Notes under the pieces: model-generated
What the model was told of the DNA's origin: nothing
Databases searched by the model: none
What the model saw: only the letters and a program-made list of their open reading frames with translations
Made by a program: the position numbers and the translations under genes
In this document: positions 2,587-27,815 of the stretch, one piece after another
Layout: each line of letters opens with the position of its first letter
How positions within the stretch are numbered: the first letter of the stretch is position 1
From: Promethearchaeota archaeon
GTDB taxonomy: Archaea > Asgardarchaeota > Hermodarchaeia > Hermodarchaeales > Hermodarchaeaceae
DNA length: 32,000 nucleotides
Assembly (NCBI GenBank): GCA_048938295.1
Contig: JBHLMI010000016.1
Coordinates: 22,973 to 54,972, forward strand
Direction: 5' to 3'

Positions 2587-3795
2587 CTAGAATACTTCAG
2601 CTCGACGAGCGATAATGATGCACAATACGATTACTACGACTACTACGACTACAGCGACAATCCACCATGGAAAGACAAAAAGGTCGGGTCCCACTGGCAG
2701 GAGAAGTTGGTCAAGTTGGTCGAGTAGGGCTAGAGTGGAAACTGCGAAATTTGTTTGGGTGGCAGTTCCATTTGTTCCGCTAATATCGTTGAAGCCACCG
2801 TCAAGAGTCTGTTTGCTAAGTATCCATGCTGTGATATCCTCTGTAACTAGCTGACTGTCTGCGCTGAGGATTTGTAGACTAGCTACCGCATAAAAGGTTG
2901 CTAGAAGGGTAGCAACAGGGTTGTCTGGCGTATAACTGAAGCCCCCTTGGTATTGAGGATAATTCATATCATCGCGATAATGGGGAAGAATGTAATCAAT
3001 CGCTGCTTGTTCATCGATTATTGATAGGGCTCCGAGTATTTGGAGACTACGCAGGGCCATGTAAGTTGTTTGCAAGTCTGCTACTGTAGAGTTCCGTCCG
3101 TTAGCAAATCCTCCATAGCTGGGCGAAAGCGGATCTGATAGAAGCTGGCTGGAATTCAGCCAGTCAATTGCTAAGGAGGTATTCATTTGCGAAATCGCAT
3201 TGTACACGTCAAGAATTTGAATCGCAGAATAGGTGGCCGACACCGTAGCAGAGATATTAGCCCAATCCATGAACCCGCCAACCGTGTCAGGATACAAAGT
3301 GGCGTTAGTGTGTTGTAGGTTGATAGTGAAATCTATGAGAATAGTGAAATCAATATTATCTGTATGATTAAGGAGATCGAGCGTCTGGGCTCCAAAGGCA
3401 CTTGCCGAGAGCGTTGCATTCGGGTAGCCATAATACGGTGGGAATCCCCCATAGCTTGGATCTGAAGACATTTCATCGACTTGAAGTTCGGTAACCCATT
3501 CTGTCATGTTCTCAATTAAGACCCGATCCGGAGTAAGGAGGTCCGCCGCGATCCAGGCATCAAGGGTATCAAAGACGTTAGCGATGGCAAAGGTATTAGA
3601 TATTGTGGGAAGTGGTTCGCCTGGTCGCAAAACTGCACCACCAGAGCCGTCTAAACAAGTCACGGAGAAGGCAATGATAACATCCTGTCGAGAGGGCGCG
3701 GCTAAGGCAGTCAGAGGGCTAGCCAATACAAGGAGAATGAGCCCAAGAATCAAGGTGTTAGTGAACCTACGCAAGCAATGGTCCTCCAAATTCAC
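2587..3795 (-). CDS. Secreted, C-terminally membrane-anchored protein with prenyltransferase/squalene-cyclase-type alpha/alpha toroid repeats
   Basis: Signal peptide LILGLILLVLASPLTALAAP. Five to six repeats of the type xxGGF...T(Y/F)xAxxxLxxL (SYGGFPP, VGGFMD, SYGGFAN, YQGGFSY, LDGGFND). Many N-x-S/T sequons. Poly-Val C-terminal TM helix followed by RRAEVF. Confidence 0.65.
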   Translation of the reverse strand: MNLEDHCLRRFTNTLILGLILLVLASPLTALAAPSRQDVIIAFSVTCLDGSGGAVLRPGEPLPTISNTFAIANVFDTLDAWIAADLLTPDRVLIENMTEWVTELQVDEMSSDPSYGGFPPYYGYPNATLSASAFGAQTLDLLNHTDNIDFTILIDFTINLQHTNATLYPDTVGGFMDWANISATVSATYSAIQILDVYNAISQMNTSLAIDWLNSSQLLSDPLSPSYGGFANGRNSTVADLQTTYMALRSLQILGALSIIDEQAAIDYILPHYRDDMNYPQYQGGFSYTPDNPVATLLATFYAVASLQILSADSQLVTEDITAWILSKQTLDGGFNDISGTNGTATQTNFAVSTLALLDQLDQLLLPVGPDLFVFPWWIVAVVVVVVVIVLCIIIARRAEVF

Positions 3796-8747: not shown

Positions 8748-10127
8748 TTACTTTACTTTCAGATCTTCGAGAGCATCAGATACGATTTGGAGTCCTTGGT
8801 TGACTAATGTCTTTACTCGGGTTTCAGTTTTTGCTTCTGCAAAGACACGAAAGATAGGTTCTGTTCCAGAGGGGCGGAGAAGAACCCAACCATCGGTGTA
8901 TCGAAATTTGATTCCATCGATGGTGCTGCACTCCGCTTCTGAGGGGGCATATCCTTTGATGAGCTCAAGGAGGTCCTCTTTCTCCTGATGACTGCAGTGA
9001 ACGCTCTCTTTAACTTGATGATAAGTGGGAAATTGGCGATCTAGCTCTTCCAGAGATTTGTCTTCTAGCTCCATTAGTTCGAGAATCTTTAGTGCGGTAA
9101 GCATCCCCTCTCGGGCCCAAGACCAGCCGCGATAAATAACTCCCCCATTTTCTTCACCCCCAATCACCGCATTTTTTGCTTTCATTGCCTGGACTATAAA
9201 TGGTTCACCGACCCGCGTTTCGACTATCTCTGCATCAACGAGGCGAGCAACTTCGTGGATGATATCGCTGGTCGCAACTTGTGTTACGATACGCTTTGGC
9301 TTCTCCTGTAGGTCTCGAAGCGAATGATATGCTGCTAGTGCGAAGACGCGATCACCCATAAGGTATCGACCTTGATCTGTGATGAAGATGATTCGGTCGG
9401 CATCACCATCCCAGGCAATCCCCACATCGAGTTCATTCTTTTTAACGGTCTGAATTAATTCTTGGAGATTCGCTTCTTTTGGCTCTGGTAGCCGGTTAGA
9501 AAAAAGACCATCAGGCTCGCAGTAAAGAAGCTTGGTCCGCACCTCTATCGCATTCAACAGGGCAGGAACAACCATCGCCGCTGCGCCTCCACCACAATCA
9601 GCAGCAACATGGAACTGCCGTTTAATCAGACGTTGTCCATCAACCTGCTCGAGCAAGGCTTCGATATACTGCAACCTGAAATCCTCAGAGGGGACGAGAC
9701 GGCCGCAAGCCTGCCATTCACGTAAGGATCTGTCTTCAGCAAAATAGTAGTCTTCAACTGCATGTCCCATTTCTACCGTAAAGGATGCGCCATCTGGGCC
9801 CCATAATTTAATGCCATTGTATTCTGGTGGGTTATGACTTGCTGTAATCATTACCCCCCCATCCAATTTGAGTCGTGGAATGGCATAAGCTAACAGTGGT
9901 GTGGGAACCAGACCAAGAATATGAACATTACAACCTCCCCCCATCAAGCCAGCACTAAAAGCAAATCCAAGCATTTCACTGGATTGTCGCGAATCCCAAC
10001 CTAGACCGATGGTCTTCTGTCCTTCAAGATAATCTGCTAGTGCATGGCCCACATCATGTGCAACTGTTGCCGTGAGTTCTTTATTGACGATGCCACGGAA
10101 TCCTTGGGTCCCAAACAATCGGGTCAA
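8748..10127 (-). CDS. glmM: Phosphohexomutase paralogue 1 (phosphoglucosamine mutase / PGM-PMM family)
   Basis: TASHNPPEYNGIKL (catalytic Ser loop), DGDADR (metal loop), GGEENGG (sugar loop), RPSGTEP (phosphate loop). TTG start is preceded by GAGGAG. Confidence 0.8.
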   Translation of the reverse strand: MTRLFGTQGFRGIVNKELTATVAHDVGHALADYLEGQKTIGLGWDSRQSSEMLGFAFSAGLMGGGCNVHILGLVPTPLLAYAIPRLKLDGGVMITASHNPPEYNGIKLWGPDGASFTVEMGHAVEDYYFAEDRSLREWQACGRLVPSEDFRLQYIEALLEQVDGQRLIKRQFHVAADCGGGAAAMVVPALLNAIEVRTKLLYCEPDGLFSNRLPEPKEANLQELIQTVKKNELDVGIAWDGDADRIIFITDQGRYLMGDRVFALAAYHSLRDLQEKPKRIVTQVATSDIIHEVARLVDAEIVETRVGEPFIVQAMKAKNAVIGGEENGGVIYRGWSWAREGMLTALKILELMELEDKSLEELDRQFPTYHQVKESVHCSHQEKEDLLELIKGYAPSEAECSTIDGIKFRYTDGWVLLRPSGTEPIFRVFAEAKTETRVKTLVNQGLQIVSDALEDLKVK

Positions 10128-10205: not shown

Positions 10206-10916
10206 CTAAAACATATTCGGGGAAATGTTTTGGCGGGATACAAGTGATCGCGTCTCTTCAATGTGAGTTCCGATTTCTTTGCGGATCACTTCGATACGAT
10301 CCGCCTCAAGATAAGGCTCCATGGTCCATAGGAGCAATCCAGTATAGAGTTCCTTTGGATCTATGAGTTCCTCAATATTCCGGATTGTTTTCAATCGAAA
10401 CAGGTACTCGTCCTCGTACATGCAGACTATTTCACAAAGCTTCCGGCTAAGGGCATCGACGTTTTCAACCAATTGATGAATCCGTGGTTCATTGCTTCCC
10501 TCAGAGCTGAGCAGATTGCCTCCACGGCGTTGCAACTCAGAGACCCGTTTTTCCATTAACCGCATTTTTCTGATCGAGCTTTCAAAATCAGATGCTAGGG
10601 CTAACAACTTGGGGAGCACCTTATCGAGGAGTCCCATGTTTTTGGTGATAGCTCGATCGATGATACCCTCAAAAGAAGTGAGTTTTCCAAGATCCTCGAT
10701 ATTACGAAGGTAATTGATTTTGGATAATGAGCCAAGGATGACTCGAATGGGTCGAAGTGAACTGCGGTGTGCTGATTCCCACCGATTCATGGCGTCGTCC
10801 AGACCTCCCGTGACTTCCCGCATTGAGCGCCCGAACTCACGGATGACCGCAGCAAGATGGTCTTCATCCATTGATTGAGAATTCCCTAAGGAATCTGCAG
10901 ACTTAACGACCCGCAT
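10206..10916 (-). CDS. Hypothetical, predicted all-helical cytoplasmic protein
   Basis: Long ORF with no motif I recognise. The ATG at 10916 is preceded by AAGGTGG at 5-nt spacing, which is why it is preferred over the GTG at 10925. Confidence 0.5.
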   Translation of the reverse strand: MRVVKSADSLGNSQSMDEDHLAAVIREFGRSMREVTGGLDDAMNRWESAHRSSLRPIRVILGSLSKINYLRNIEDLGKLTSFEGIIDRAITKNMGLLDKVLPKLLALASDFESSIRKMRLMEKRVSELQRRGGNLLSSEGSNEPRIHQLVENVDALSRKLCEIVCMYEDEYLFRLKTIRNIEELIDPKELYTGLLLWTMEPYLEADRIEVIRKEIGTHIEETRSLVSRQNISPNMF

Positions 10917-10983
10917 CCTAACCACCTTAGAGTAGTCGGCGAATTTAACTTCTTTGCTTTGTGCATTGTAGAAAAAACCACGC

Positions 10984-11048: not shown

Positions 11049-12428
11049 ATGACATGGACGCCCTGCTTCGGCACTAGCGGTATTCGTGGCTCTGTCCCCG
11101 ATGAACTCAATCCTAGGGTTGCTTGGCAAATTGGCTATAGCGTTGCCACGGTTTTCAACCGGGCACCTCTGTTGGTCTGCCATGATAACCGTACAAGCAG
11201 CCCATTGCTGACAAATGCCATCGTTAGTGGATTAATGGCAGGAGGATCTGACGCTCTTTATGGAGGTGAAGTCATCACACCAGCTGTGAGCCTGTATCTC
11301 CGCTACTGTGATTTGGCGGGGGCAATACTAATCACCGGGAGTCATATTCCCGCTCATATGTCTGGGATTGAAGTACTCAGCCATGATGGCGCGCCAGTCG
11401 CACATGATGTTGAATTGCAGATCGAAGCGCTCAATGTGTCGAAAGCCACACCTGTGAATTGGCGAAACCATGGACGGCTTCGACAAGTAACCGATGTAGG
11501 CTCCTTTTGGATTAAAAAGGTCGTAGCACAAGTGGATGCAGATCTCATTGCCAGACGAAAATTTCGCGTTGTTGTCGATGCTGCAAATGGAACAGCCATC
11601 CCCTGGCTGCTAGATGCCATCAAACAACTGGGTTGTACTGTCATTGGGCTTAACACCGAACGGGATCCCATGTTTCCCGGTCGGTCCCCGAATTTACGGG
11701 TTAACTTATTGGAACAAGCGGTTCAGTTGGTGAAACAACATAAGGCGGATTTGGGTGTCGCCGTTGATGGTGATGCTGACCGTGCATTTTTCGTCGACGA
11801 TAAAGGACGGGCAATCATGGGGGATGTTTCTGGCACACTACTGGCTCAAATCGAATTGACCCGTGAAGGGGGAGGCACCATCGTCACACCCATCAATTCT
11901 AGTAACCTCGTTGAAGATGTCGTTGGACAATTCAAAGCTCGCATCGTATATAGCCGCATAGGACCACCAGCGATAGTGGCGGCCATCAAGAAGTATAACG
12001 CACTATTTGCTTTTGAGGAATCTGGTAAAATCATCTACCCCCACCTCAACTACCTTTCAGATAGTGGTCTTGGCACTGCCTATCTGTTGGAGCATTTAGC
12101 AAAAACCGAAAAGCCACTAAGTGAGATTATTGATACATTCCCCAAGTATACCCAATTGAAACGCGCAATTGATTGCCCGAATGGTCTCAAAGAAGCTGTT
12201 AGCTTGCATGCACTTGAAATGGTGAGAAAAGATTATCCCAATGTGCAAGTCAATACCGTAGATGGAGTCAAAGTCATTTTCGATGATGGCTGGTTGCTGC
12301 TTCGTCCCTCCGGTACAGAACCAGTCTTTCGCTGCTTTGCAGAATCCCGTCAGGAAAAACGAGCTCAGGAACTCCTTGCACTCGGGCTCGATTGGATTGG
12401 AGATGTACTCAAATCTGCTGCTTCATAA
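11049..12428 (+). CDS. Phosphohexomutase paralogue 2, divergent catalytic loop
   Basis: DGDADR and RPSGTEP loops are present. The catalytic Ser loop reads ITGSHIPAHMSGIEV instead of TASHNPxxxNG. The sugar loop reads FEESGK. Confidence 0.75.
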   Translation: MTWTPCFGTSGIRGSVPDELNPRVAWQIGYSVATVFNRAPLLVCHDNRTSSPLLTNAIVSGLMAGGSDALYGGEVITPAVSLYLRYCDLAGAILITGSHIPAHMSGIEVLSHDGAPVAHDVELQIEALNVSKATPVNWRNHGRLRQVTDVGSFWIKKVVAQVDADLIARRKFRVVVDAANGTAIPWLLDAIKQLGCTVIGLNTERDPMFPGRSPNLRVNLLEQAVQLVKQHKADLGVAVDGDADRAFFVDDKGRAIMGDVSGTLLAQIELTREGGGTIVTPINSSNLVEDVVGQFKARIVYSRIGPPAIVAAIKKYNALFAFEESGKIIYPHLNYLSDSGLGTAYLLEHLAKTEKPLSEIIDTFPKYTQLKRAIDCPNGLKEAVSLHALEMVRKDYPNVQVNTVDGVKVIFDDGWLLLRPSGTEPVFRCFAESRQEKRAQELLALGLDWIGDVLKSAAS

Positions 12429-12455: not shown

Positions 12456-13859
12456 ATGTCTTCAACACAATCCTTGTTTGGAAGCTCAGGTATCCGGGGA
12501 AAAGTCAATGAGTTCATCACCGGTCCATTGGCTATCCAAATTGGTCTAGCTACCGCAGACTATCTACGAGCTTTAGAGAAGCATCCACAGATTATGGTGG
12601 GGCATGATCATCGGACTACTGGTCCGATGCTGACTTCGGCGTTAATGGCAGGCCTTCTTGAGGGGGGAGTTACAGTTACAAAAACCGAGATGGCACCCAC
12701 ACCCTCCATTGCCTATGCGGCGGGAAAAAAGGGCATGCACGCATCGATAATTGTGACCGCGAGTCACAACCCTCCCGAATACAATGGTTTCAAATTTCAC
12801 AATCCCGATGGGGCTGGCTTCTCAGCGACCCAACAGGATGAACTCGAAAAGCGGATTACGAAAGTTGAACCCGTAGATTGGACGCATTTCACTGATTTTA
12901 CTTCGGTTGAAGTCATCCCACATCACCTCGATGCTATAGTGAATGCCTGCGATGTGAATAGGTCATACAATGTTGTTATAGACGGCGCACTCGGCGTCGG
13001 AAGCCTGGTCACCCCCCCAGCACTTCAACAACTACACGCAAGCGTCAAACCCCTTAATGCTCCCCCCGATGGGCAGGAATATGCACACCATTGCCACCCA
13101 TCAAAGATACAAAGTGCCGCAGCAGCGGAATGGCAGCATTTTGTACATCTTGATAATCTCAGCGAAATCGTCACCTCAACTAAAGCACACGTCGGAATCG
13201 CCCATGATGGCGATGCAGACCGCGTTTTAGCAGTCGATGATAAAGGACGAGTTCTAGCAGGGGATATCCTCTTGGCATTAGTGGCAGACTACTACCTCGC
13301 TACCCGGGGAGGTAAGGTCATTGCCACTACCGTGTCAAGCTCGAGCATCGTCGATCATGTTGCAAAGCATCATGGTGCACGGGTTGAGCGGTCCCGTGTT
13401 GGTGATGTGTTTGTTTCCAATCTAGTCAAAGAACATCAAGCCGTGATGGGTGCCGAACCCTCTGGGCCTTTCATCTTCCCAGAGGTACATTATTGTCCTG
13501 ATGGACCACTTGCTGCATGTAAGATACTTGAACTCCTCGAATGGGCAAACCGGTCCCTAAGTCAGCTCGTCGATGATCTACCATCAACCCATTTACTCAG
13601 AGCATCTGTAACTTGTCCCAACGAGAAAAAAGACACTGTGATGAAAGCAATCAAATCAGTATTCGAAGAACGGATGGACATCGAAGACGTGAACCAAATT
13701 GATGGTATTCGTGCCAGTTTCCATGACTCCAGCTGGGTGCTCATCAGACCATCCGGTACAGAACCCGTCATCCGTGTCACAGTTGAAGCATTTTCAGCAC
13801 AAAGGGCAAAGGACCTTCTCAAAGCTGCCCAACAGACGCTAAAACGGCAAATCAGGTAA
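12456..13859 (+). CDS. Phosphohexomutase paralogue 3
   Basis: TASHNPPEYNGFKF, HDGDADR, GAEPSGP, RPSGTEP. There is a 27-nt spacer after paralogue 2, with GGAG upstream of the ATG. Confidence 0.8.
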   Translation: MSSTQSLFGSSGIRGKVNEFITGPLAIQIGLATADYLRALEKHPQIMVGHDHRTTGPMLTSALMAGLLEGGVTVTKTEMAPTPSIAYAAGKKGMHASIIVTASHNPPEYNGFKFHNPDGAGFSATQQDELEKRITKVEPVDWTHFTDFTSVEVIPHHLDAIVNACDVNRSYNVVIDGALGVGSLVTPPALQQLHASVKPLNAPPDGQEYAHHCHPSKIQSAAAAEWQHFVHLDNLSEIVTSTKAHVGIAHDGDADRVLAVDDKGRVLAGDILLALVADYYLATRGGKVIATTVSSSSIVDHVAKHHGARVERSRVGDVFVSNLVKEHQAVMGAEPSGPFIFPEVHYCPDGPLAACKILELLEWANRSLSQLVDDLPSTHLLRASVTCPNEKKDTVMKAIKSVFEERMDIEDVNQIDGIRASFHDSSWVLIRPSGTEPVIRVTVEAFSAQRAKDLLKAAQQTLKRQIR

Positions 13860-13864
13860 GGAGT

Positions 13865-15148
13865 CTAGTGTCGATCTTCTATTGTCGTTTGCTTGAGCTT
13901 AACATGCACATTGTCAGGTACATCCTTTTGGACAACAATCGAGGGATCAATCCATGAGTTATACCCAATAGTTCGACCTGGTAACACAACTGCTCCACAG
14001 CCGATTTTCGAAGCGTCCCCGATGACAGCGCCAAATTTGTCTGTATGTGTAGACACTAATTGCCCTCCTAGCATTACCTGAACCTCTGAACCATCAAATC
14101 GGTAGTTAGCCAACACGACACTCGCCCCGATCTCTACATCAAAACCAAGGATACTATCACCAACAAAGGCGAGATGACCAATTCTACTTCCAGGTAACAT
14201 CACGGTATTACGAACTTCACAGGAAAAGCCGGCTCGTGCTCCTTGATCGATCACAACGTGATCACGAATTAAGCAATTGTTGCCCACAATGGCATTGGGA
14301 CCGATATAAACGGGTCCCACTAAGGCTGCCCCAGGAAACACTCGGGCGTGCGACCCTATCCACACATCTCCACTGAGATGTGCAGAATCACTAACTGTTG
14401 CGGTTGGATGAATGGAATCGCCTTTCTGTTGACGTAATCGGTCGAAGAGGATGGGAGACGCCTCGAGGATATTCCAACTGCGTCCAACGTCAACCCAGGA
14501 ATCCTTTGAATGGCTCCCGTGGACAGTATGCCCTTCGTCGATGAGTTTCTGAATCCCCCCTTCCAAATCCTGAGTCTTTCGAAGCATGTCAAAGATTGCA
14601 TTGGTGAAAACGTAGACTCCTGCTACGGCAAGATTACTTGGCTCCGTTCCCTTCTTTGGTTTCTCAACAATAGTTGTGATCTCAGTCCCTTCCAAAGCCA
14701 CAACCCCAAACTGCCAAGGGTTCGGCACCTCAAACAATGATAAAGCCATATCGCTAGATTTGGCAGCTTCTACTGTCGCCTTGAAGCGTCTCGTTGTAGT
14801 GATGATGTCACAATCAGTCATTAGGAAACGGTCCTCGTCCGCTAGGCGATCTTCGGCGGCTAGGACTGCGTCGTATTCTCCTTTCGGTTCAGTCTGCTTT
14901 GAGTAGCTGATAGTAACTCCGAAGTCTTCCCCTTCACCAAAATACGCTTCAATTTGCTCACAGAAGTGACCTACAACTAGCACAATGTCTTTCATACCCG
15001 CTTCGCGGACTGTATCAATCACATGGTGCAGCATCGGTTTGCCAAGAAGCGGTATCATGGCCTTTGGTCGATGCTGAGTCAAAGGATGTAATCTTGTGCC
15101 ATACCCAGCCGCGAGAATTAGTGCCTTCAATCTTATTCCCACTTCCAT
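13865..15148 (-). CDS. Bifunctional sugar-1-phosphate nucleotidylyltransferase / left-handed beta-helix acetyltransferase (archaeal GlmU-like)
   Basis: N-terminal LILAAGYGTRLHPLTQHRPKAMIP motif. The C-terminal third has hexapeptide-repeat character (IGPNAIVGNNCLI...IGHLAFVGDSILG...IGASVVL). The ATG at 15148 overlaps cysS by 16 nt. An alternative TTG at 15130 would give MKALILAAG. Confidence 0.8.
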   Translation of the reverse strand: MEVGIRLKALILAAGYGTRLHPLTQHRPKAMIPLLGKPMLHHVIDTVREAGMKDIVLVVGHFCEQIEAYFGEGEDFGVTISYSKQTEPKGEYDAVLAAEDRLADEDRFLMTDCDIITTTRRFKATVEAAKSSDMALSLFEVPNPWQFGVVALEGTEITTIVEKPKKGTEPSNLAVAGVYVFTNAIFDMLRKTQDLEGGIQKLIDEGHTVHGSHSKDSWVDVGRSWNILEASPILFDRLRQQKGDSIHPTATVSDSAHLSGDVWIGSHARVFPGAALVGPVYIGPNAIVGNNCLIRDHVVIDQGARAGFSCEVRNTVMLPGSRIGHLAFVGDSILGFDVEIGASVVLANYRFDGSEVQVMLGGQLVSTHTDKFGAVIGDASKIGCGAVVLPGRTIGYNSWIDPSIVVQKDVPDNVHVKLKQTTIEDRH

Positions 15149-16599
15149 ACGGTTCCGGTCTTTTCGTCTTCTAAGATAATACCCAAGTCCTTGAGTTGAT
15201 TACGGACCTGGTCCGCTGTTTTGAAATCTTTTTGTTTGCGAGCTTGATCCCGAATTTGAATTAGCAGCCTCACTAATCCGTCAACCATTCGGTCATCGTC
15301 TGCACTTGACCGCATCCGTTCACGGTATAGCCCTAACACCTCACCAACAGCATCAAGACTTGTGAAGATTTTTTCTAACGTCCCTGCAGTCACCGATTGA
15401 TTCCCTGCTACCATACTATTCATTGTAGTCAGGAATTTATTCAGGCTAGCGAGGGTTTCAGGGGTATTGAAATCATCATCCATAGCTGAATCAAATTCAT
15501 GCTCGAAAGTGGATAGCGCGTCCCACAGCTTGGTATCTGCCTCCGATGGCTTCCTCGGATTCTTTGTTTCCTCCATCCGGGCTTCGCGAAGCCGGTGCTG
15601 AAGAAGATCGATTGAGTTGTGAATTCGTGCCAACCGAGCCTTTGCTTCCTCAAGCTGAGCATCACTGAAATCAACTGGGCTTCGATAATGTGATGAAATG
15701 AGGAATAAGCGAACGATCTCTGGATCATATTTCGCCGTAATTTCTTGGATGGTGAAAAAGTTCCCCAACGATTTGGACATCTTCTCGCGATTCACCGTTA
15801 AGAAACCATTATGCATCCAATACCGAACGAAGGGTTGACCCGCTAAGGCCTCAGATTGAGCAATCTCATTTTCATGATGGGGGAATACCAAATCAAGGCC
15901 ACCCCCATGAATATCAATGGGGTAGCCTAGATACTTAGTCGACATGACCGAACATTCAATATGCCAGCCTGGGCGACCTTTTCCCCACGGAGAGTCCCAA
16001 CTCGGTTCACCTGGCTTCATAGCTTTCCATAACGCAAAGTCCTCTGGATGCTCTTTCTCTTCGATCACTCCGGCATCCTGATCTTCCTGCTCAAATGGCG
16101 TCTCCTCCCCCTTGTCCCGACGTGATAGGCGACCGTATTGTTTGAACTTTGATACCCGGAAATACACGCTACCATTTGCCTCGTAGGCAACCCCTTTCGC
16201 GATTAATTTGTTGATGTGTTCAATCATCTCTTGGATGTGCTCGGTAGCCTTCGGATAAGCGGTGGCACGTTTCACAAACAGCTTATCAAAATCCTCAAAA
16301 TACTCGTGGATATACTTCGCTGCTAACTTGGCCGTGGTCGTGTTCTGCTCTTGTGCACGATTTATCATCTTATCATCGATATCCGTGAAGTTTTGGATAA
16401 AGCGCATATCATAGCCCTTATACTCCAGATAACGTCGAATTACATCAAAGGCCACAATTGATCGCGCATGGCCCAAATGTGCTGAATCATACACCGTGGG
16501 TCCACAGACATACATGCGAATCTCGCCCTCATGTAGAGGTTTGAAGGGCTCTTTCTTCCGTGAGAGCGTATTGTATACCTGTAACATAGCGTCTCCCAT
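15133..16599 (-). CDS. cysS: Cysteinyl-tRNA synthetase
   Basis: Class I signatures HLGHARS and KMSKSLGN. Zn/Cys-binding context CGPTVYD. Start is ATG at 16599 or at 16587. Confidence 0.92.
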   Translation of the reverse strand: MGDAMLQVYNTLSRKKEPFKPLHEGEIRMYVCGPTVYDSAHLGHARSIVAFDVIRRYLEYKGYDMRFIQNFTDIDDKMINRAQEQNTTTAKLAAKYIHEYFEDFDKLFVKRATAYPKATEHIQEMIEHINKLIAKGVAYEANGSVYFRVSKFKQYGRLSRRDKGEETPFEQEDQDAGVIEEKEHPEDFALWKAMKPGEPSWDSPWGKGRPGWHIECSVMSTKYLGYPIDIHGGGLDLVFPHHENEIAQSEALAGQPFVRYWMHNGFLTVNREKMSKSLGNFFTIQEITAKYDPEIVRLFLISSHYRSPVDFSDAQLEEAKARLARIHNSIDLLQHRLREARMEETKNPRKPSEADTKLWDALSTFEHEFDSAMDDDFNTPETLASLNKFLTTMNSMVAGNQSVTAGTLEKIFTSLDAVGEVLGLYRERMRSSADDDRMVDGLVRLLIQIRDQARKQKDFKTADQVRNQLKDLGIILEDEKTGTVWKWE

Positions 16600-18204: not shown

Positions 18205-18442
18205 CAAAATTCACTCCACCGTACTAGAATAGATACACTTTGCCTTTCAATCCCTTATAGGCTATGCTCAGTCGCCTTGTTAACTCCTTAATCAGTTTAT
18301 TATCATCCGCAATCTAGACAAATACTTAAGAACGCGTGTTTCGCGGCACTAGGTGGACTTTGAAGAGAAGGCTAGCCTCTTCAGAGTGTGTGCATTGCAC
18401 TCATGCGGCTACAAAGGCAACTCCAATCTTAAGGTGGATATC

Positions 18443-21400
18443 ATGCGGCGAAAACAGATCTTCTTATTGGTAGTAATGTCAATCCTGCTCTTTCCCCTCG
18501 TTCCTCTTGTTCCCTCTAACAAGGCAATATCACCTCACACCAGCACTTCGGATGTGGAAACCGGAACCTCTCCGGATTCATTATTCAACAATCCCCTTGA
18601 CACTTCATTGACTACACCTGAGTTTACTTTGCCAACCGGTATCTCTATTCCGGACAATCCTGTAGAAACCCCTGATATCCCAATCAGCCAATCTGGGGCT
18701 GGTTCAACTCGTCTTACACAATTAACATGGAATATATCACGGTCATTCAACAATCGAAATGATGTTTCAGATTACACAGTCCATATCACTAAGGGCATGC
18801 TATATCATGATGAAAGCTACTTCACCCGCATCGGGGATATCCACTCAAATAAAGACTACATACTGGTTGAAGACCATGATCCCTTAGCCGGTTGGCGCTA
18901 TTACTGGCCAATGGAAGAAAAGGCCTGGCCTGGTGAAGTCGTGTTTATGGCCTTTAATATTAGCGGGCTCTCCCCAATTGAGCTAACTGAATTTGTAATC
19001 TACCTCTATTCACCAAGTACTCCACCCAATCCTGTCTCTGGGGGTTGGTATAATTATACTGTGTATGCTGCAGCCCCCAGTGGAACCTCGGGCTTGGGAA
19101 CTATGCCAAATTTGGCTCAACGTATGGGACCTTGGATGCAGGAACTTGTTCCAGATATCCCAAGAGGGGATGAACTTTGGGTTCCGCTCCCCACTACCCC
19201 TATTATTTTGGATAGCGGAATGACTTATGCGAACACCTTCTACTTTGCCCTCACAATGATGCCTGGTGCTGCTGCAAATTGGGCATTGATGGAGGATGTC
19301 GGAATTCCCCCCGATGGAGATGGTGATGATGAAGGTGATGCATGGTATTCCTATCCTTGGCCAAGCCTTACTTTCTTCTCGGGTCCTTCGCATGATTTCT
19401 TCCTCGGACTTGCATTCACACGGTTCTTCTATCCCAGTGAGATAGGCATGGCTGTGAATGCTACTCCTGTGATGGACCAGTTTCCAACTCCTGGAATTGG
19501 TTTATGGGATGGTGGCTGGCATTCACCAGCCATCAATATGACGAATGCTGACCGATATTATGACGTGTCATACAGCATGCCAGGTTTAACCTATGATGTA
19601 GATTGGCTTGGCTGGTTTTATGAACTAGTATATGCTGATTCGCACTGGACCGCGTACGTTTTCCAAGATTGGGTTGATTGGAACGTAAGCTTCTATGCTG
19701 AGTTTCCTGTTCTAGCGCTTGATCAGAGAATATTAGTTTCGATTGGGTCAGATTGGACAGTGCTTTCTGTCCAATGCAATGGATTGAACCACTTGGACTG
19801 GTCATATCAATATTCTCCCACCACCGGATACTGGCTTGTCATTGATAACGCCCGAAGTGGACAATGGACCATCCTTTGCGATTCACCAGATTATATGGTA
19901 GATTCGGAAGTTCGGGATATGTCAAATCAGGTGATTACACAAGCCACAGGCGACGATGACGTAACAGCCATAGGGTACGTTGAGGATCAATCCGGTCAAA
20001 ACGCCACCAACGGATATGGCTATCTACTCGTTTACGATCCACGAGATGCCTTCAATACTTTTAATTTCAGTGCCCTTCCGATGCCTCCAGGTGGAATGGT
20101 CGAAATCAATTGGTCAATTTGGCTAACCTCCACATGGGCAGGCGTGTACACGCTCCATATCCTCTGGACAAATGGCAGTGAGGCAGGCCTGAATCTCCAA
20201 ACTCTCGAAGTCTACATGCAAACTAATCTAAAAATCACCTATGAATTCCCTCCAGCTGGCGATCCCGTGATTCGCGGTGACGTGGTCCATATTGAAGTCT
20301 ATTTTGACAACCAATGGGGATTCCCAATCTACGATGCTACAGTCACAATCATTAATGACAGCAGTGGATTAGAATGGGGGCTTGGCCCAGGCGACACCAA
20401 AATTGATTATGAGTATATCAACTGGGAAGAACAAGGCTTTCCCGGATACTACACAGCACTCCTCTTTACTGAAAATGCCTCTCTTGGAGTTTTACACAAT
20501 ATCACAATGCAGCTCTCCTCGCCCTATAATCAGGATCAGAGTGTGACAAAACAATTCGAGGTAAAGAGCCGGGCAACTCATATCGTGTTCTTCTGGGAAG
20601 GGCAACCACTTCCAGGATTGAATAATATCTCGGATATTTGGTTTACTGATCCTCACCCCTACATCAACGATACATCTTTACAGTTCACTATTCGTTATAC
20701 CGATGATTTTGGTCTACCCATTACTGGAGCTCAAATTACCCCGTATCTCGTTCACGAGACGCAGGGGGTCTACAAACGGCTTGATTGGGTTGACCTATAT
20801 CTTATTGACTCAACTAAACCAGGCTTCTATAATATCACCATCGATACCAATCCAATAGCTGGCAGAGCCTTTCACGAAGGTGATCCAGCCTATATTGTCA
20901 TTTATGCAAGTAAGTTTGGCTACGAATCAACCTGGTCAGACACAATCGATGTCTTACCCCAACCTCGACCTTCCCGCATCGATGTGCCACTCGAATTTCA
21001 AGAAATCACATTATACCACGATTGGACTTATCCCACAAGTGGGCATCCTAACATTCTCCGTGTTATTCTCCGTGATGCCATAAACAGTGAAGACCTGAGT
21101 CATGGAACAGTAAAAGCTAGTGTAGGTGGGTTACCAAACATCACCCTCATTTTAGCAACTCCCGGACTTGGGCTTTATGAAATTGAAAATATCACAACAG
21201 CAGGATTACTACCTGGGGTCTATAACATCACACTCTATGCTGAAGCACGAGATTTCGTTGAAACAGTAACCTATGTCCAACTGACAATCCTTCCCAAACA
21301 GACAATCGGGTATACCATCGATTCGAACTTCGAAGAATTACAAATGCCTAATTATGGTTTGGAGTGGTGGATCTCTCTTCAGCTTTATCTTGAAAATCCT

Positions 21401-22522
21401 CCTGGTTTCAAGAACTCGGATTCAATTTTTGGAGTTAGTCGCCAACCAGGAGTAAGCTTCATACCTAGTGGTGTTAAGGTCATTTTAACCATTACCGCAC
21501 AGAGTGGAAATTATGCCCCGATAGAGGGAACTGTTGGCGAAGATGGAATGGTGCATTTTTCAGGGGACCTTATCCATGAAGGGGAACATAATTTCTACAT
21601 AAGCCTAGAAGGTGCAGAGAATTATGCCACCATCACGAATATGGAGATCCAGCCCAGTAGCCAACCCGTTAGCGTTATGTCAATGACTTCTCTTATTACT
21701 CAAAATCTCCCAACAATTCTTATGCTGGTCGCCCTTATCACCATAATTCCATTGGGTTCATTTCTAGCCTACCGGCGCTATTATCTCCTACCCAAACGCC
21801 AAGAAAAATTAGAGAAATACCAAACCATTGCAGATACTTTCAGTGACGTAGCGAATCTTAATCGACTCCTCGTACTCCACAAAGAAAGCGGCATTTGCGT
21901 CTTTGATCCCTTCGCTGAAGAAAGCCAAGACGCAACGTTAGTAGCAGGATTTCTCCAAGCAATTTCCACCTTTGGACATGACCTAGGAGACAGTCAAGGG
22001 CTTGCAAATGGTTCAGATGAGGCACGTACCCTCCGCGAACTCCAATACGAAGGCTTTCGAATCCTCATCAACGATGCCCAGTTCATTCGTGTTGCTTTAG
22101 TTCTGAGTGGAACACCCAGTGAACAACTCCGAGGTCGACTCGAAACCTTCTCAGACGTCTTTGAGAAACGATATCAAGCTGACTTTGAGCAATGGGAGGG
22201 CCGCGTAGATCAGTTCAATGGCGCCTCAGACCTCGTTGAAGATGTCTTTCTAATCTCACTACGCCACCCCCATAGTGTGACGCCAAGTAAACCTCGCGGA
22301 ATCCAACTAACCTCAGTGGAATCCGATATTTACAGCCTTTCCAAAGAACTGACCAAAGACCGAGAATACATCTTCCTTGGACAAATCCTAAGCACCTATC
22401 TCGCTGCAGCGAAAACCGATAAACTGGAAGCTTTAATGGGCATCTATCAGCTCCGAATGAAAGGTATATTCCAACCACTGCATATCATCCCCGCCCCAAC
22501 AACTACTGCGTCAGCTGGCTAG
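18443..22522 (+). CDS. Giant (1359 aa) predicted type I surface glycoprotein with a 243-aa cytoplasmic tail (longin/roadblock-like plus winged-helix-like)
   Basis: The ATG at 18443 is preceded by AAGGTGGA. Signal/anchor MRRKQIFLLVVMSILLFPLVPLVP. W/Y/N-rich ectodomain with many N-x-S/T sequons. Single TM at about 21707-21772 (LPTILMLVALITIIPLGSFLAY) followed by RRYY. The tail spans 21791-22519. Confidence 0.8.
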   Translation: MRRKQIFLLVVMSILLFPLVPLVPSNKAISPHTSTSDVETGTSPDSLFNNPLDTSLTTPEFTLPTGISIPDNPVETPDIPISQSGAGSTRLTQLTWNISRSFNNRNDVSDYTVHITKGMLYHDESYFTRIGDIHSNKDYILVEDHDPLAGWRYYWPMEEKAWPGEVVFMAFNISGLSPIELTEFVIYLYSPSTPPNPVSGGWYNYTVYAAAPSGTSGLGTMPNLAQRMGPWMQELVPDIPRGDELWVPLPTTPIILDSGMTYANTFYFALTMMPGAAANWALMEDVGIPPDGDGDDEGDAWYSYPWPSLTFFSGPSHDFFLGLAFTRFFYPSEIGMAVNATPVMDQFPTPGIGLWDGGWHSPAINMTNADRYYDVSYSMPGLTYDVDWLGWFYELVYADSHWTAYVFQDWVDWNVSFYAEFPVLALDQRILVSIGSDWTVLSVQCNGLNHLDWSYQYSPTTGYWLVIDNARSGQWTILCDSPDYMVDSEVRDMSNQVITQATGDDDVTAIGYVEDQSGQNATNGYGYLLVYDPRDAFNTFNFSALPMPPGGMVEINWSIWLTSTWAGVYTLHILWTNGSEAGLNLQTLEVYMQTNLKITYEFPPAGDPVIRGDVVHIEVYFDNQWGFPIYDATVTIINDSSGLEWGLGPGDTKIDYEYINWEEQGFPGYYTALLFTENASLGVLHNITMQLSSPYNQDQSVTKQFEVKSRATHIVFFWEGQPLPGLNNISDIWFTDPHPYINDTSLQFTIRYTDDFGLPITGAQITPYLVHETQGVYKRLDWVDLYLIDSTKPGFYNITIDTNPIAGRAFHEGDPAYIVIYASKFGYESTWSDTIDVLPQPRPSRIDVPLEFQEITLYHDWTYPTSGHPNILRVILRDAINSEDLSHGTVKASVGGLPNITLILATPGLGLYEIENITTAGLLPGVYNITLYAEARDFVETVTYVQLTILPKQTIGYTIDSNFEELQMPNYGLEWWISLQLYLENPPGFKNSDSIFGVSRQPGVSFIPSGVKVILTITAQSGNYAPIEGTVGEDGMVHFSGDLIHEGEHNFYISLEGAENYATITNMEIQPSSQPVSVMSMTSLITQNLPTILMLVALITIIPLGSFLAYRRYYLLPKRQEKLEKYQTIADTFSDVANLNRLLVLHKESGICVFDPFAEESQDATLVAGFLQAISTFGHDLGDSQGLANGSDEARTLRELQYEGFRILINDAQFIRVALVLSGTPSEQLRGRLETFSDVFEKRYQADFEQWEGRVDQFNGASDLVEDVFLISLRHPHSVTPSKPRGIQLTSVESDIYSLSKELTKDREYIFLGQILSTYLAAAKTDKLEALMGIYQLRMKGIFQPLHIIPAPTTTASAG

Positions 22523-22598: not shown

Positions 22599-22673
22599 TG
22601 GAGCCGAGGATGGGATTTGAACCCATATAGAACAGCTCTGCAGGCTGTCGCGTGGCCACTCCGCCACCTCGGC
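22599..22673 (-). tRNA. tRNA-Cys (anticodon GCA), CCA encoded
   Basis: Manual cloverleaf. Acceptor stem GCCGAGG/CCTCGGC. T arm ATGGG-TTCAAAT-CCCAT. Anticodon arm ACAGC-CTGCAGA-GCTGT. 5-nt variable loop. Discriminator U73, as expected for tRNA-Cys. 3' CCA is present in the DNA. Confidence 0.9.
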
Positions 22674-24084: not shown

Positions 24085-24438
24085 ATGGAAGCTTTAATGC
24101 ATGAGGGTCTGGTGACAACCTTGGCAAAAGATTCTGGTCTTGTGCTCGCAGGTACTGTCCTTTGCTTTATCGCATCAATTATTGCAGTCATCCTCGGTGT
24201 ACTGGATTTAGTTGCTTTTGACCTCATCAGCGGTGTTATCTACCTCGGTCTCGGTCTAGTGTGTGTCATTTTCACCTTTCGTATCTATAAGCGGTACTTC
24301 CAAACCTATGCAATTCTGCTTCTGGTGTTTTCGATTATTTTCCTCGTCGCAGCATACCTTGTTCTTGGAACTTGGGGATATCTCGTCGGCATTCTCATGC
24401 TCATTGGAGTAATTCTACTCCTTGTTGCGAAAGCTTAA
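24085..24438 (+). CDS. Small integral membrane protein (3-4 TM helices), unknown function
   Basis: Strongly hydrophobic helices. A TTTTTAAATA box at 24062-24071 suggests the start may instead be the ATG at 24097 (leaderless). Confidence 0.55.
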   Translation: MEALMHEGLVTTLAKDSGLVLAGTVLCFIASIIAVILGVLDLVAFDLISGVIYLGLGLVCVIFTFRIYKRYFQTYAILLLVFSIIFLVAAYLVLGTWGYLVGILMLIGVILLLVAKA

Positions 24439-24448
24439 TCAAGCGCGT

Positions 24449-25222
24449 TTATTCAGCGACATCGGACAAGGCTATAATGGCCTTGGTTAGGGCTCGGATG
24501 ATGGCTGAATGGGCGCTTGCCCTTCTTTCTTTTTCTTGCTCTGTCAAGTCATCAAGGATGCTTTTTCCCTCGAGAGGTAAATCCGAAATAACATGCGCTG
24601 CGACCGCATTAATTCCCACAACGCTCGCAACCGTATACAAGGCACTGGTCTCCATTTCAATCCCCATAAACGCCTTTTCTGATAATGCAGTCAAAAACGG
24701 GATAGTCTCCGCTGCTAGCGAATCAGTCGTGAACACGTCCCCAACGAACAACTGGTATCCCTCTTCGTCAGCCACGACCTGAAGAAACGGTTGCACGTGT
24801 TTAGCTAACTCAGAACACACACAAGCCCGATCAAAAAGTGACGCAAAATATCCGGATGCCCCATCTCCGCGCTCACAATCCATGGCTAAAACAAAATCAC
24901 CAATCTCCATTCCTTGTGCGAGCCCACCAATAGCGCCAGTGTATAGGATGTTTTTCACTCCGGCAAATTGCAGAAAGTACACACAATCGGCCATGCCAGG
25001 TGCATACCTGACATTATCCAATATTGTGATGAACTGGTTCTCTTCTAAGAACCCAGACACACCAGTAAACCATTTACCAATTGGCACAGGCTGCTGAAGC
25101 TGGTCTTCAAGTTCAATCACCTTGTTCTTGGTGGGAGTAATCAAGACAGTAGGGGCGATTTGATCGGGGTGTACACCAAAGACGCGGTGGATTATTCGTT
25201 CTGGGTCATATTCTGCAAACAT
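24449..25222 (-). CDS. Nucleoside phosphorylase, PNP/UDP family 1
   Basis: The motifs TGAIGGLAQGMEIGDFV and GIEMETSALYTVA are typical of purine/uridine nucleoside phosphorylases. Substrate is not assignable. Confidence 0.7.
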   Translation of the reverse strand: MFAEYDPERIIHRVFGVHPDQIAPTVLITPTKNKVIELEDQLQQPVPIGKWFTGVSGFLEENQFITILDNVRYAPGMADCVYFLQFAGVKNILYTGAIGGLAQGMEIGDFVLAMDCERGDGASGYFASLFDRACVCSELAKHVQPFLQVVADEEGYQLFVGDVFTTDSLAAETIPFLTALSEKAFMGIEMETSALYTVASVVGINAVAAHVISDLPLEGKSILDDLTEQEKERRASAHSAIIRALTKAIIALSDVAE

Positions 25223-26651: not shown

Positions 26652-27815
26652 ATGGTAATTAGGCTTGGTGCAACCGTGGTGGAACCCATTTCCCCTGATG
26701 TTATCCGTACAACCGATGTCGGAAGTTATCCACTCGTCGCCATTGATATGACCCGTTATTCATGGGGTGCTGCAGATCTAGAGGGCAGTCATCACACAGA
26801 AGTAGCTAAGGACTTCATCCGACAGCACAATGATGCCTTTACACGCAAGATGAGAGCACTAGGGTCATCGATCAGTGCACCTTGCTATGTGCAAGGCACC
26901 TTCGAAAGGGATATGATCAGTCAATTCCTTGACCCTATTGTCCGGCATGGCCGTGGTCTCCAAAAACAGGCAAACAGGTATCTCTGGGACGGAACTCTCA
27001 TCCAGTTGCCATCAGAAAAGGCTCAAGTAGCTGAACTTCTAGCCCTTAAACACGGGGCAAAAACCATCTGCCAAGAATTCGAGATTGATTCTATCCAATA
27101 CCGGGCCTGCATCACTGGACCCTTTGAATTAGCCAGTCGCCTCTGGCGAGACATGGGCGTTGGTCCCCGCTACGATGAATCCCTCATCGAATCCTTCGCA
27201 GCCATCGTCCGCGCCTTCATGAAGAACGCCCAAATCGAAACCAAATACCTCAAGCCCCTCATCATTACACTGGATGAACCTTCAATCGGTGTCGCTGGGG
27301 TCGGTGATCTATTCATGGATACTGATACGGATGATCGGCTCAATCACCTCATCGACAACTGGAATACAATACTCTCAACTATTCCTTCTTGTTATTACCG
27401 TGGTATACATCTCCATTCTTCTCCTTACCACCAACTCGCTAGCGCGAATTGGAATCTGCTTGAAGCCCACCAGAGCGTCATTGTTTCAAAATCTTGGCTT
27501 GTGGAGCACAACAAATACATTCGAGCCGCGGTCATGCGAACCGACGGACCGACTTTTTCCTCAGGCGTTAATCTACGAAAGGCTTGGGACGAAATCCTGT
27601 CAGGGAACATTCTGCCTTACCTCCAGCCACAAGAAGAAATGTGGCATTATCTTGAAGCTGCTGTCACCCGCTATGGCAGTGACCAAGTCCCTTTTGCTGG
27701 TCCCGAATGTGGACTTGGTCCCTGGAACTGGCGATACGGTGAGGAAATGGTCCTCGCTAGCCTTGAGAATCTCCAACAGGTTGTTACAAGTTTCAACCAG
27801 TCACACAAACTCTAA
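26652..27815 (+). CDS. MetE-like (cobalamin-independent methionine synthase family, catalytic-domain type) methyltransferase
   Basis: TTDVGSYP N-terminal motif, LIITLDEPSIG, H-L-H at 27408-27416, LLEAH, and PECGLG (Cys at 27708-27710). Confidence 0.6.
   Translation: MVIRLGATVVEPISPDVIRTTDVGSYPLVAIDMTRYSWGAADLEGSHHTEVAKDFIRQHNDAFTRKMRALGSSISAPCYVQGTFERDMISQFLDPIVRHGRGLQKQANRYLWDGTLIQLPSEKAQVAELLALKHGAKTICQEFEIDSIQYRACITGPFELASRLWRDMGVGPRYDESLIESFAAIVRAFMKNAQIETKYLKPLIITLDEPSIGVAGVGDLFMDTDTDDRLNHLIDNWNTILSTIPSCYYRGIHLHSSPYHQLASANWNLLEAHQSVIVSKSWLVEHNKYIRAAVMRTDGPTFSSGVNLRKAWDEILSGNILPYLQPQEEMWHYLEAAVTRYGSDQVPFAGPECGLGPWNWRYGEEMVLASLENLQQVVTSFNQSHKL

Follow-up and report, generated by a model that had tools for sequence, protein, structure and literature searches.

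A 32-kb stretch of Promethearchaeota archaeon DNA, called the window below, carries the gene for a giant, conserved type I surface glycoprotein. In this protein a fast-evolving ectodomain is joined by one transmembrane (TM) helix to a slowly evolving cytoplasmic domain of the longin/roadblock type and a winged-helix-like domain. No description of a giant single-pass glycoprotein with a cytoplasmic longin/roadblock domain was found in the literature searched, and no Pfam or NCBIfam model covers the tail module. An earlier reading of the bare sequence (the original prediction) had not recognised this architecture either, and the module indeed proved to be unannotated in Pfam, NCBIfam and NCBI protein names.

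The gene occupies 18443..22522 (+), stop codon included, and encodes 1359 amino acids (aa). It lies within the longest open reading frame (ORF) of the window, 18353-22522 (+), which opens at a GTG at 18353; the ATG at 18443 is the likely start. The product matches NCBI protein P0195, named “hypothetical protein [Promethearchaeota archaeon]”, in length and sequence, start included. Full-length orthologues are 1244-1373 aa long. The motif “GGTGGA” at 18433..18438 (+), at -10 and 4 nt before the ATG, may be the ribosome-binding site.

Ectodomain, membrane helix and topology

Hydropathy analysis gave exactly two hydrophobic segments, at residues 4-25 and ~1089-1111. The first belongs to an N-terminal signal peptide or signal anchor (18443..18520, +), which starts with “MRRKQ”, has a hydropathy maximum of 2.66 over residues 6-24 and is conserved at the N-terminus among orthologues. 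The second is the single TM helix (residues 1089-1111; 21707..21775, +), with a hydropathy of 2.38. Its position is kept in 8 orthologues, with “YRRY..PKR” after it. In the window protein the helix runs directly into a basic stop-transfer stretch, “RRYYL” (21776..21790, +). A K/R cluster right after the helix, and none before it, was found in 8/8 orthologues, as the positive-inside rule expects.

Between the two segments lies an acidic ectodomain of ~1062 aa (18521..21706, +), which is rich in W (3.3%), Y (6.0%) and N (5.2%) and poor in K+R (3.6%). It contains 19 N-x-S/T sequons. The number expected from 5000 shuffles was 8.2 ± 2.6, and 19 was reached in only 1 shuffle. The 243-aa tail has 1 sequon and 10.8% K+R. 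The 8 orthologues examined all showed the same pattern, with 19-32 ectodomain sequons against 7-11 expected and 0-2 sequons in the tail, and 16 aligned sequon columns were common to at least 5 of the 8. A sequon excess before the TM helix and a K/R cluster after it fit a type I topology, with the ectodomain outside the cell and the tail in the cytoplasm. Judging from its sequons, the ectodomain is probably N-glycosylated. The signal peptide, the sequon-rich ectodomain and the C-terminal membrane anchor, read from hydropathy, sequons and the positive-inside pattern, follow the design of archaeal S-layer and other surface glycoproteins. The original prediction had drawn the protein as a signal or anchor peptide, a W/Y/N-rich ectodomain full of sequons, one TM helix and a 243-aa tail, and hydropathy, composition and orthologues all bear this drawing out.

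The two sides of the membrane evolve at different rates. Orthologues of the window gene share 58-84% identity in the tail and 30-54% in the ectodomain. Compared with the ectodomains of paralogous family members, local similarity is 22-30%. The ectodomain gave no Pfam, NCBIfam or PDB sequence match, also when searched as an orthologue profile. Self-BLAST found no internal repeats in it, and no ectodomain homologues without the tail were found.

Fold of the cytoplasmic tail

We modelled the tail with AlphaFold2. The better model, built on 38 family sequences, has a mean predicted local distance difference test score (pLDDT) of 86.6 and a predicted template modelling score (pTM) of 0.81. A poorer model, made earlier from 12 sequences, has a pLDDT of 68.0. 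In the better model, tail residues 1-133 (21791..22189, +) form a domain that we read as longin/roadblock-like from the model, its Foldseek matches in the PDB and its conservation. A juxtamembrane helix (2-22) is followed by two strands (23-30, 36-38), a helix (48-66), a disordered loop, three strands (81-86, 89-95, 99-105) and a last helix (111-133). This α-β-β-α-β-β-β-α order is that of the roadblock/LC7-longin superfamily, whose members have an antiparallel meander of five β-strands flanked by a single helix on one side and one or two on the other; β-β-α-β-β-β-α-α is its alternative order. The original prediction had named the same fold from four strings of tail residues, and in the model these correspond to β1-β2, the α helix, β3-β5 and the α helix after them.

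Foldseek searches of the PDB agreed with this assignment. With the better model, 49 of the 50 best matches were members of the roadblock/longin superfamily, and only rank 30 went to another structure, a bacteriophytochrome chromophore-binding domain. Among the superfamily matches were Fuzzy, AP-1/AP-2 σ, Mon1-Ccz1, dynein LC7, LAMTOR2/3, Sec22b, coatomer ζ, Rag C-terminal domains and TRAPP. Probabilities were ~1.0, E-values 9e-4 to 1e-2 and identities 8-19%, with template modelling scores (TM-scores) of up to 0.65 when normalised to small single-domain targets. With the poorer model, all of the top 50 belonged to the superfamily, at identities of 8-20%. Across both models E-values ranged up to ~2e-2.

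The sequence searches did not back the fold assignment. Neither the tail nor the whole protein gave a Pfam (E<=1), NCBIfam or PDB sequence match, and the same was true of the orthologue and family profiles. PF03259 (Roadblock/LC7) did not match even at E<=1, and no Pfam match to the module was found in 38 family members. Likewise, hhalign returned nothing when the family alignment was compared with human DYNLRB1 and LAMTOR2, for both of which unverified sequences were used. Matches of one of the profiles (A2) to sodium-channel β1 were dismissed, because they arise from Ig and TM columns. Because its support comes from the Foldseek lists of two AlphaFold2 models without matches in sequence, the predicted longin/roadblock-type fold of the first ~135 tail residues is supported at the level of fold, not of sequence.

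Across 140 family members, the conserved positions cluster in this domain. D19, K31, G34, D47, L50, G53, F54, A57, F61, Y86, G96, R100 and E125 are each conserved in at least 86%, and G137, F142 and P160 are further conserved positions. The conserved helix of the domain reads “D..L..GFLQAIS.F”.

The domain is followed by a linker (22190..22300, +) modelled as two helices and a short strand (140-153, 155-158 and 161-163), with the conserved F142 and a conserved P160-H161 motif. Tail residues 171-232 (22301..22486, +) then form a winged-helix-like domain, modelled with pLDDT >90 as helices at 175-187, 196-206 and 211-223, a possible strand at 194 and a strand at 227-229. The C-terminal residues 233-243 (22487..22519, +) are predicted to be disordered (pLDDT <50 for 235-243) and vary among homologues.

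A winged helix in the last ~60 aa had also been part of the original prediction. The order of elements in the model, H-(β)-H-H-β, fits this claim, for which the full topology would be H1-S1-H2-H3-S2-(wing)-S3, but sequence profiles matched no winged-helix family. Pfam gave no winged-helix hit in the tail or in the 38 members, and a profile of 25 sequences of this region retrieved only chance matches from the PDB (designed TIM barrels and VASP coiled coils). Compared by hhalign with the PCI-like winged helices of soluble relatives (see below), the profile gave E 0.029 and a probability of 1.7%. The region carries a net charge of 0 (family median +1.5). It is the least conserved part of the module and is missing or replaced in several subfamilies. 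The model thus lends weak support to a C-terminal winged helix.

An Asgard-wide family and its gene neighbourhoods

An exhaustive HMMER search with the tail, counted as cluster representatives at 50% identity, yielded 893 representatives at E<=1e-3, of which 449 remained at E<=1e-10 and 23 at E<=1e-30. In the best 150 of the 893, the ~230-aa module stands at or near the C-terminus of proteins that are 150-3025 aa long. A search of related genomes for the same architecture had been suggested with the original prediction, and it was successful: in 139 of these 150 a TM helix lies directly upstream of the module, at a distance of at most 40 residues. The ectodomains are highly variable and range from ~0 to 2400 aa. 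Every named member with the TM architecture is from Asgard archaea (Hermodarchaeia, Lokiarchaeota/Harpocratesius, Helarchaeota, Hodarchaeota, Odinarchaeota, Thorarchaeota-labelled and Promethearchaeota). Their NCBI names are “hypothetical protein” or “Ig-like domain-containing protein”. In 38 members, the only Pfam domains recognised were Ig-like ones (Big_1, MG4 and Big_3_5) in some ectodomains, and none in the module. The module therefore defines a large, sequence-distinct and unannotated Asgard-wide family with diverse ectodomains.

A helical-repeat extension follows the module in 57/150 of the best representatives. In 44/150 (P0036, P0037, P0042, P0100, P0142 and others) a homologous C-terminal extension has a conserved motif of ~50 aa, “ISQQE..L....V......E.....V..L....P.EREA.L.SL”. 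After this motif a helical repeat of ~100 aa, “KYKEA...Y..A......FKLG”, occurs 2-5 times. In the extension, TPR matches stayed below threshold.

The longin/roadblock-like domain also occurs outside the TM architecture, in a TPR fusion and in small stand-alone proteins. In soluble Asgard proteins of 720-805 aa, encoded at L070 5971-8142, L065 1030-3447 and L076 8213-10378, it is combined with winged-helix arrays. These arrays match PCI (E 2.5e-18), DDRGK (4e-14) and E3_UFM1_ligase/UFL1 (2.4e-15) above the Pfam cut-offs. The soluble relative in L070 starts with Cys-rich motifs that read as zinc-ribbon-like. A distant homologue of the domain was also found in bacterial “OmpA family” proteins of ~587 aa from Alteromonas and relatives (P0190-P0194), at residues 149-278 of the cytoplasmic N-terminal region. 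These proteins consist of the cytoplasmic region, one TM helix and a periplasmic OmpA domain, which is the mirror image of the Asgard topology. We considered whether this match was spurious and rejected that, as it is a genuine local match to the longin/roadblock-like half (30% identity over 137 aa, pairwise E 4e-12).

The closest relatives of the window gene are in Hermodarchaeota and Promethearchaeota metagenome-assembled genomes (MAGs), with shared synteny, and the window therefore belongs to a Hermodarchaeia-like Asgard archaeon. The upstream neighbours in the window are housekeeping genes: a nitroreductase-family gene, CofD, CysRS, an NTP-transferase gene and three PGM/PMM paralogues. Downstream are tRNA-Cys and then an archaeal-type phosphoglycerate mutase (ApgM). 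The PGM/PMM paralogues, at 8748-10127 (-), 11049-12428 (+) and 12456-13859 (+), form a cluster with the NTP-transferase/LbH gene (13865-15148, -), 3-10 kb upstream of the glycoprotein gene, in an arrangement that is syntenic in loci L001 and L015. This cluster may supply sugar nucleotides for glycosylation. The tRNA-Cys gene (22599-22673, -) lies 77 nt past the stop codon of the glycoprotein gene and 6 kb from the CysRS gene (15133-16599, -). As it runs into the 5′ end of the ApgM ORF that was called mechanically, the true start of ApgM must lie further on.

In one syntenic locus (L001, GCA_012974985.1) the orthologue is split into ORFs of 1091 and 274 aa with a 4-nt overlap (L001 9900-10100). 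A real two-gene variant was rejected, because “nn” stands in the assembly ~100 nt upstream and all other orthologues are intact. The split is probably an assembly frameshift.

Elsewhere in the window, a TnpB/Cas12f-like ORF (OrfB_IS605 and Cas12f1-like TNB domain) lies at the start (5-1051, +). A prenyltransferase α-α toroid repeat protein (PF00432, E 1e-25) is encoded at 2587-3795 (-) and may be of interest, given the many small GTPases of this lineage. The ORFs 26652-27815 (+), 24372-24782 (+) and 10206-10925 (-) had either no Pfam match or a sub-threshold one. The last of these, of 239 aa, has a weak CA109-like match that recurs in the syntenic locus L015. Around other family members, L014, L019, L020 and L102 share a conserved triad in which genes for a P-type cation ATPase and an ATP-grasp_5 protein (~232 aa) lie upstream of a giant family member. 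One Harpocratesius (Promethearchaeia) genome, one MAG assembly of the JAEOU series and two further assemblies are the sources of these loci.

Possible coupling to small GTPases and other roles of the tail

Asgard archaea have many small GTPases and roadblock/longin proteins. We tentatively favour, at a little under an even chance, a reading in which the tail forms a pair, either with a second copy or with a soluble relative, binds a cytoplasmic partner at the membrane and so couples the ectodomain to intracellular machinery. The two domains would sit side by side, as in other longin/roadblock proteins, which dimerise through β3 and the top helix. Because the juxtamembrane helix runs straight out of the TM helix in the model, such a pair would be held flat beneath the membrane. 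The conserved face with the single helix would be turned to the cytoplasm and dock the partner, most likely a small GTPase of the Arf, Rag or Ras family or another longin/roadblock protein. A variable ectodomain for adhesion or recognition would thereby be tied to an intracellular network of GTPases and scaffolds. Coupling could run either way, outside-in as signalling or inside-out to position the surface protein. Dimers of longin/roadblock domains generally serve small GTPases as platforms: the GTPase binds on the “top” face, which bears the single helix, and the other face can be turned to a membrane (Levine et al. 2013, PMC3747258). In L032, L081, L066 and L099, TM members have genes for small soluble relatives of the domain beside them, and these are possible dimer partners, although their adjacency is only suggestive.

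The link to GTPases was examined in 101 loci (84 non-redundant, 31 member subfamilies), collected by a genome-collection scan, a metagenome scan and exact look-ups. Small GTPases recurred as neighbours more often than any other family, in 8/31 subfamilies, and the runner-up reached 3. Some of these arrangements are tight and keep to one strand. The TM member of L079 has a Gtr1/RagA-like GTPase gene at +75 bp downstream, and the gene after that encodes a 351-aa protein that ends in a GTPase domain of the Ras family. The gene at +57 bp from the family member in L095 is likewise for a GTPase. One strand of L068, L076 and L092 encodes, in this order, a soluble relative, a protein of ~180 aa and a Gtr1/RagA-like GTPase of ~400 aa. 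The operon-like linkage is suggestive for those few subfamilies only and says nothing direct about the window gene.

Some neighbouring genes were noted or set aside separately. RadA and a Robl_LC7 gene lie 3.7-4.5 kb downstream of the member in L102 and L103. Upstream of another member, L104 1-5322 encodes a TIR-Arf/Ras fusion, an HTH-HTH-Ras fusion and an Rce1-like (CAAX protease family) protein. An Arf-like gene beside the Harpocratesius paralogue in L014 was dropped as a sign of linkage, because it is absent from the syntenic L019, L020 and L102.

Several results stand against a coupling to GTPases. As the original prediction had already noted, the window holds no GTPase gene: Pfam, a GTPase hidden Markov model (HMM) and a motif scan all failed to find a GTPase or P-loop ORF in the 32 kb. 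None was found in the 7 syntenic orthologous loci with adequate flanks. The small-GTPase HMM counted 15 in the 450 kb of flank that lie within 5 kb of family members, a density of 0.33 per 10 kb. At 5-10 kb it counted 5 in 200 kb, or 0.25 per 10 kb, so there was no overall enrichment close to family members in the 84 loci (binomial p = 0.39). Three further loci had GTPases only at least 4.7 kb away, or only a Robl_LC7 gene 3.7-4.5 kb away. Since Asgard genomes are very rich in GTPases (Liu et al. preprint), their recurrence as neighbours is expected to some degree, and the linkage within subfamilies may reflect synteny passed on by descent. In the top helix, the conserved residues (L50, F54, A57, I58 and F61) are mostly hydrophobic and may just pack on the sheet. 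Thus, the search for conserved neighbours that had been suggested earlier returned housekeeping synteny in the orthologues and a few GTPase-linked subfamilies, but no general GTPase linkage. The proposal that the protein is a surface-to-cytoskeleton/GTPase signalling receptor drew no direct support from the window, the 7 loci or the 84.

The tail can be compared with several known systems. In Ragulator (LAMTOR1-5), roadblock-fold subunits lie flat on the lysosomal membrane as a platform for Rag. LAMTOR2, LAMTOR3 and the Rag C-terminal domains are among the best fold matches of the tail, and in L079 a TM-anchored member precedes a Gtr1/RagA-like GTPase. However, Ragulator is anchored by lipidation of LAMTOR1, has neither TM helix nor ectodomain and shows no sequence similarity to the tail. 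Anchoring and fold of a Ragulator-type platform are thus seen here, whereas a RagA-like neighbour occurs only in other subfamilies (L079, L068, L076 and L092) and not at the window locus. MglB and other Roadblock/LC7 proteins share the α-β-β-α-β-β-β(-α) fold class, with a target-normalised TM-score of 0.65 for dynein LC7 (3l7h). MglB-type proteins, however, are small, soluble and usually encoded beside their GTPase, and the tail lacks their PF03259 signature.

The longin SNAREs (Sec22b, Ykt6 and VAMP7) are single-pass proteins with a cytoplasmic longin domain, and Sec22b (1ifq) aligned with target-normalised TM-scores of 0.64-0.65. Their order is different: the longin is N-terminal, a SNARE motif is present, the TM helix is a C-terminal tail anchor and there is no ectodomain, whereas here the ectodomain comes first, then the TM helix and then the longin-type domain. 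NPRL2/NPRL3 of GATOR1 and Asgard NPRL2-like proteins also have a longin followed by a helix-turn-helix or winged helix (Levine 2013). They are soluble, however; the tail has no Pfam NPR2 match, and NPRL2/NPRL3 are not in the top 50 fold matches. The tri-longin RabGEFs Fuzzy-Inturned and Mon1-Ccz1 gave the best Foldseek E-values (9rs8_A, 8.9e-4; 9rs9_A; 9lol_B), but their long alignments were poor (TM-score 0.2-0.39, root-mean-square deviation 8-12 Å), and the tail contains only one longin-type domain. Roadblock/longin proteins and their fusions are already known from Asgard archaea, with 130 asCOGs of the Roadblock superfamily and NPRL2-like longin fusions (Liu et al. preprint).

We considered what else the protein might be. 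It is somewhat unlikely, though not far behind in plausibility, that it has a structural role in the envelope or glycocalyx, as one of the “complex surface proteins” with which Asgard cells are covered where an ordered S-layer is lacking. Its tail would then only anchor, oligomerise or space it in the membrane, perhaps on a cortical scaffold, without any GTPase. Its signal peptide, large acidic ectodomain with sequons and C-terminal TM anchor resemble archaeal S-layer glycoproteins, its synteny among housekeeping genes is kept in many Hermodarchaeota MAGs, the sugar-nucleotide cluster (three PGM/PMM genes and NTP-transferase) is nearby, and the orthologue group of the window gene lacks a GTPase linkage. 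The cryo-tomography of Candidatus (Ca.) Lokiarchaeum ossiferum also suits such a role, as its single membrane is covered with numerous unidentified surface proteins instead of an ordered S-layer (PMC9834061). On the other hand, a plain anchor needs no 243-aa module that is kept at high identity while the ectodomain drifts, and the domain also occurs in soluble proteins and beside Rag/Ras-like GTPases. Archaeal S-layer and surface glycoproteins are not known to have more than a short cytoplasmic tail and known S-layer anchors have short tails or none, whereas this protein has a large, folded and highly conserved cytoplasmic module.

Two further roles would give the winged helix the leading part. 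The tail could recruit ribosome-, ubiquitin-like- or proteasome-associated machinery through a PCI-type winged helix and so govern insertion, turnover or trafficking of very large secreted domains, and not signalling. We regard such a role in biogenesis, sorting or quality control as improbable. It would account for the soluble relatives fused to arrays matching PCI, DDRGK and E3_UFM1_ligase and for the sorting subunits AP σ and coatomer ζ among the best fold matches. The winged helix of the tail, however, has no match to PCI or another Pfam family and aligned with the PCI-like winged helices only at the low probability given above, and such partners were not found in the family neighbourhoods examined. 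Very improbable is a membrane-tethered one-component transcription regulator of the ToxR/CadC type, in which the ectodomain senses and the cytoplasmic winged helix binds DNA. The winged helix is the commonest DNA-binding fold of archaea, and here a similar domain lies on the cytoplasmic side of a single-pass protein. A DNA-binding winged helix should be conserved and basic, whereas this one is uncharged overall, poorly conserved and missing or replaced in several subfamilies; moreover, membrane-bound regulators are not known to come as paralogous clusters by the hundred, each with a giant glycosylated ectodomain.

The preferred reading, in which the tail pairs and docks a cytoplasmic partner, has a more specific form that we consider rather unlikely. 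In this form the family would be a receptor-to-GTPase coupling device, made of single-pass surface proteins with a TM-anchored platform like Ragulator or MglB that recruits or regulates Arf, Rag or Ras GTPases under defined patches of the surface. If true, it would represent a prokaryotic forerunner of the membrane-anchored longin/roadblock platforms of eukaryotes and would give the Asgard “complex surface proteins” a molecular identity. More generally, the family provides concrete, testable candidates for the unexplained surface proteins of Asgard archaea and a candidate physical link between the cell surface and the network of GTPases and longin scaffolds. Even without a role for GTPases, the module represents a new domain family, distinct in sequence and without annotation in current databases.

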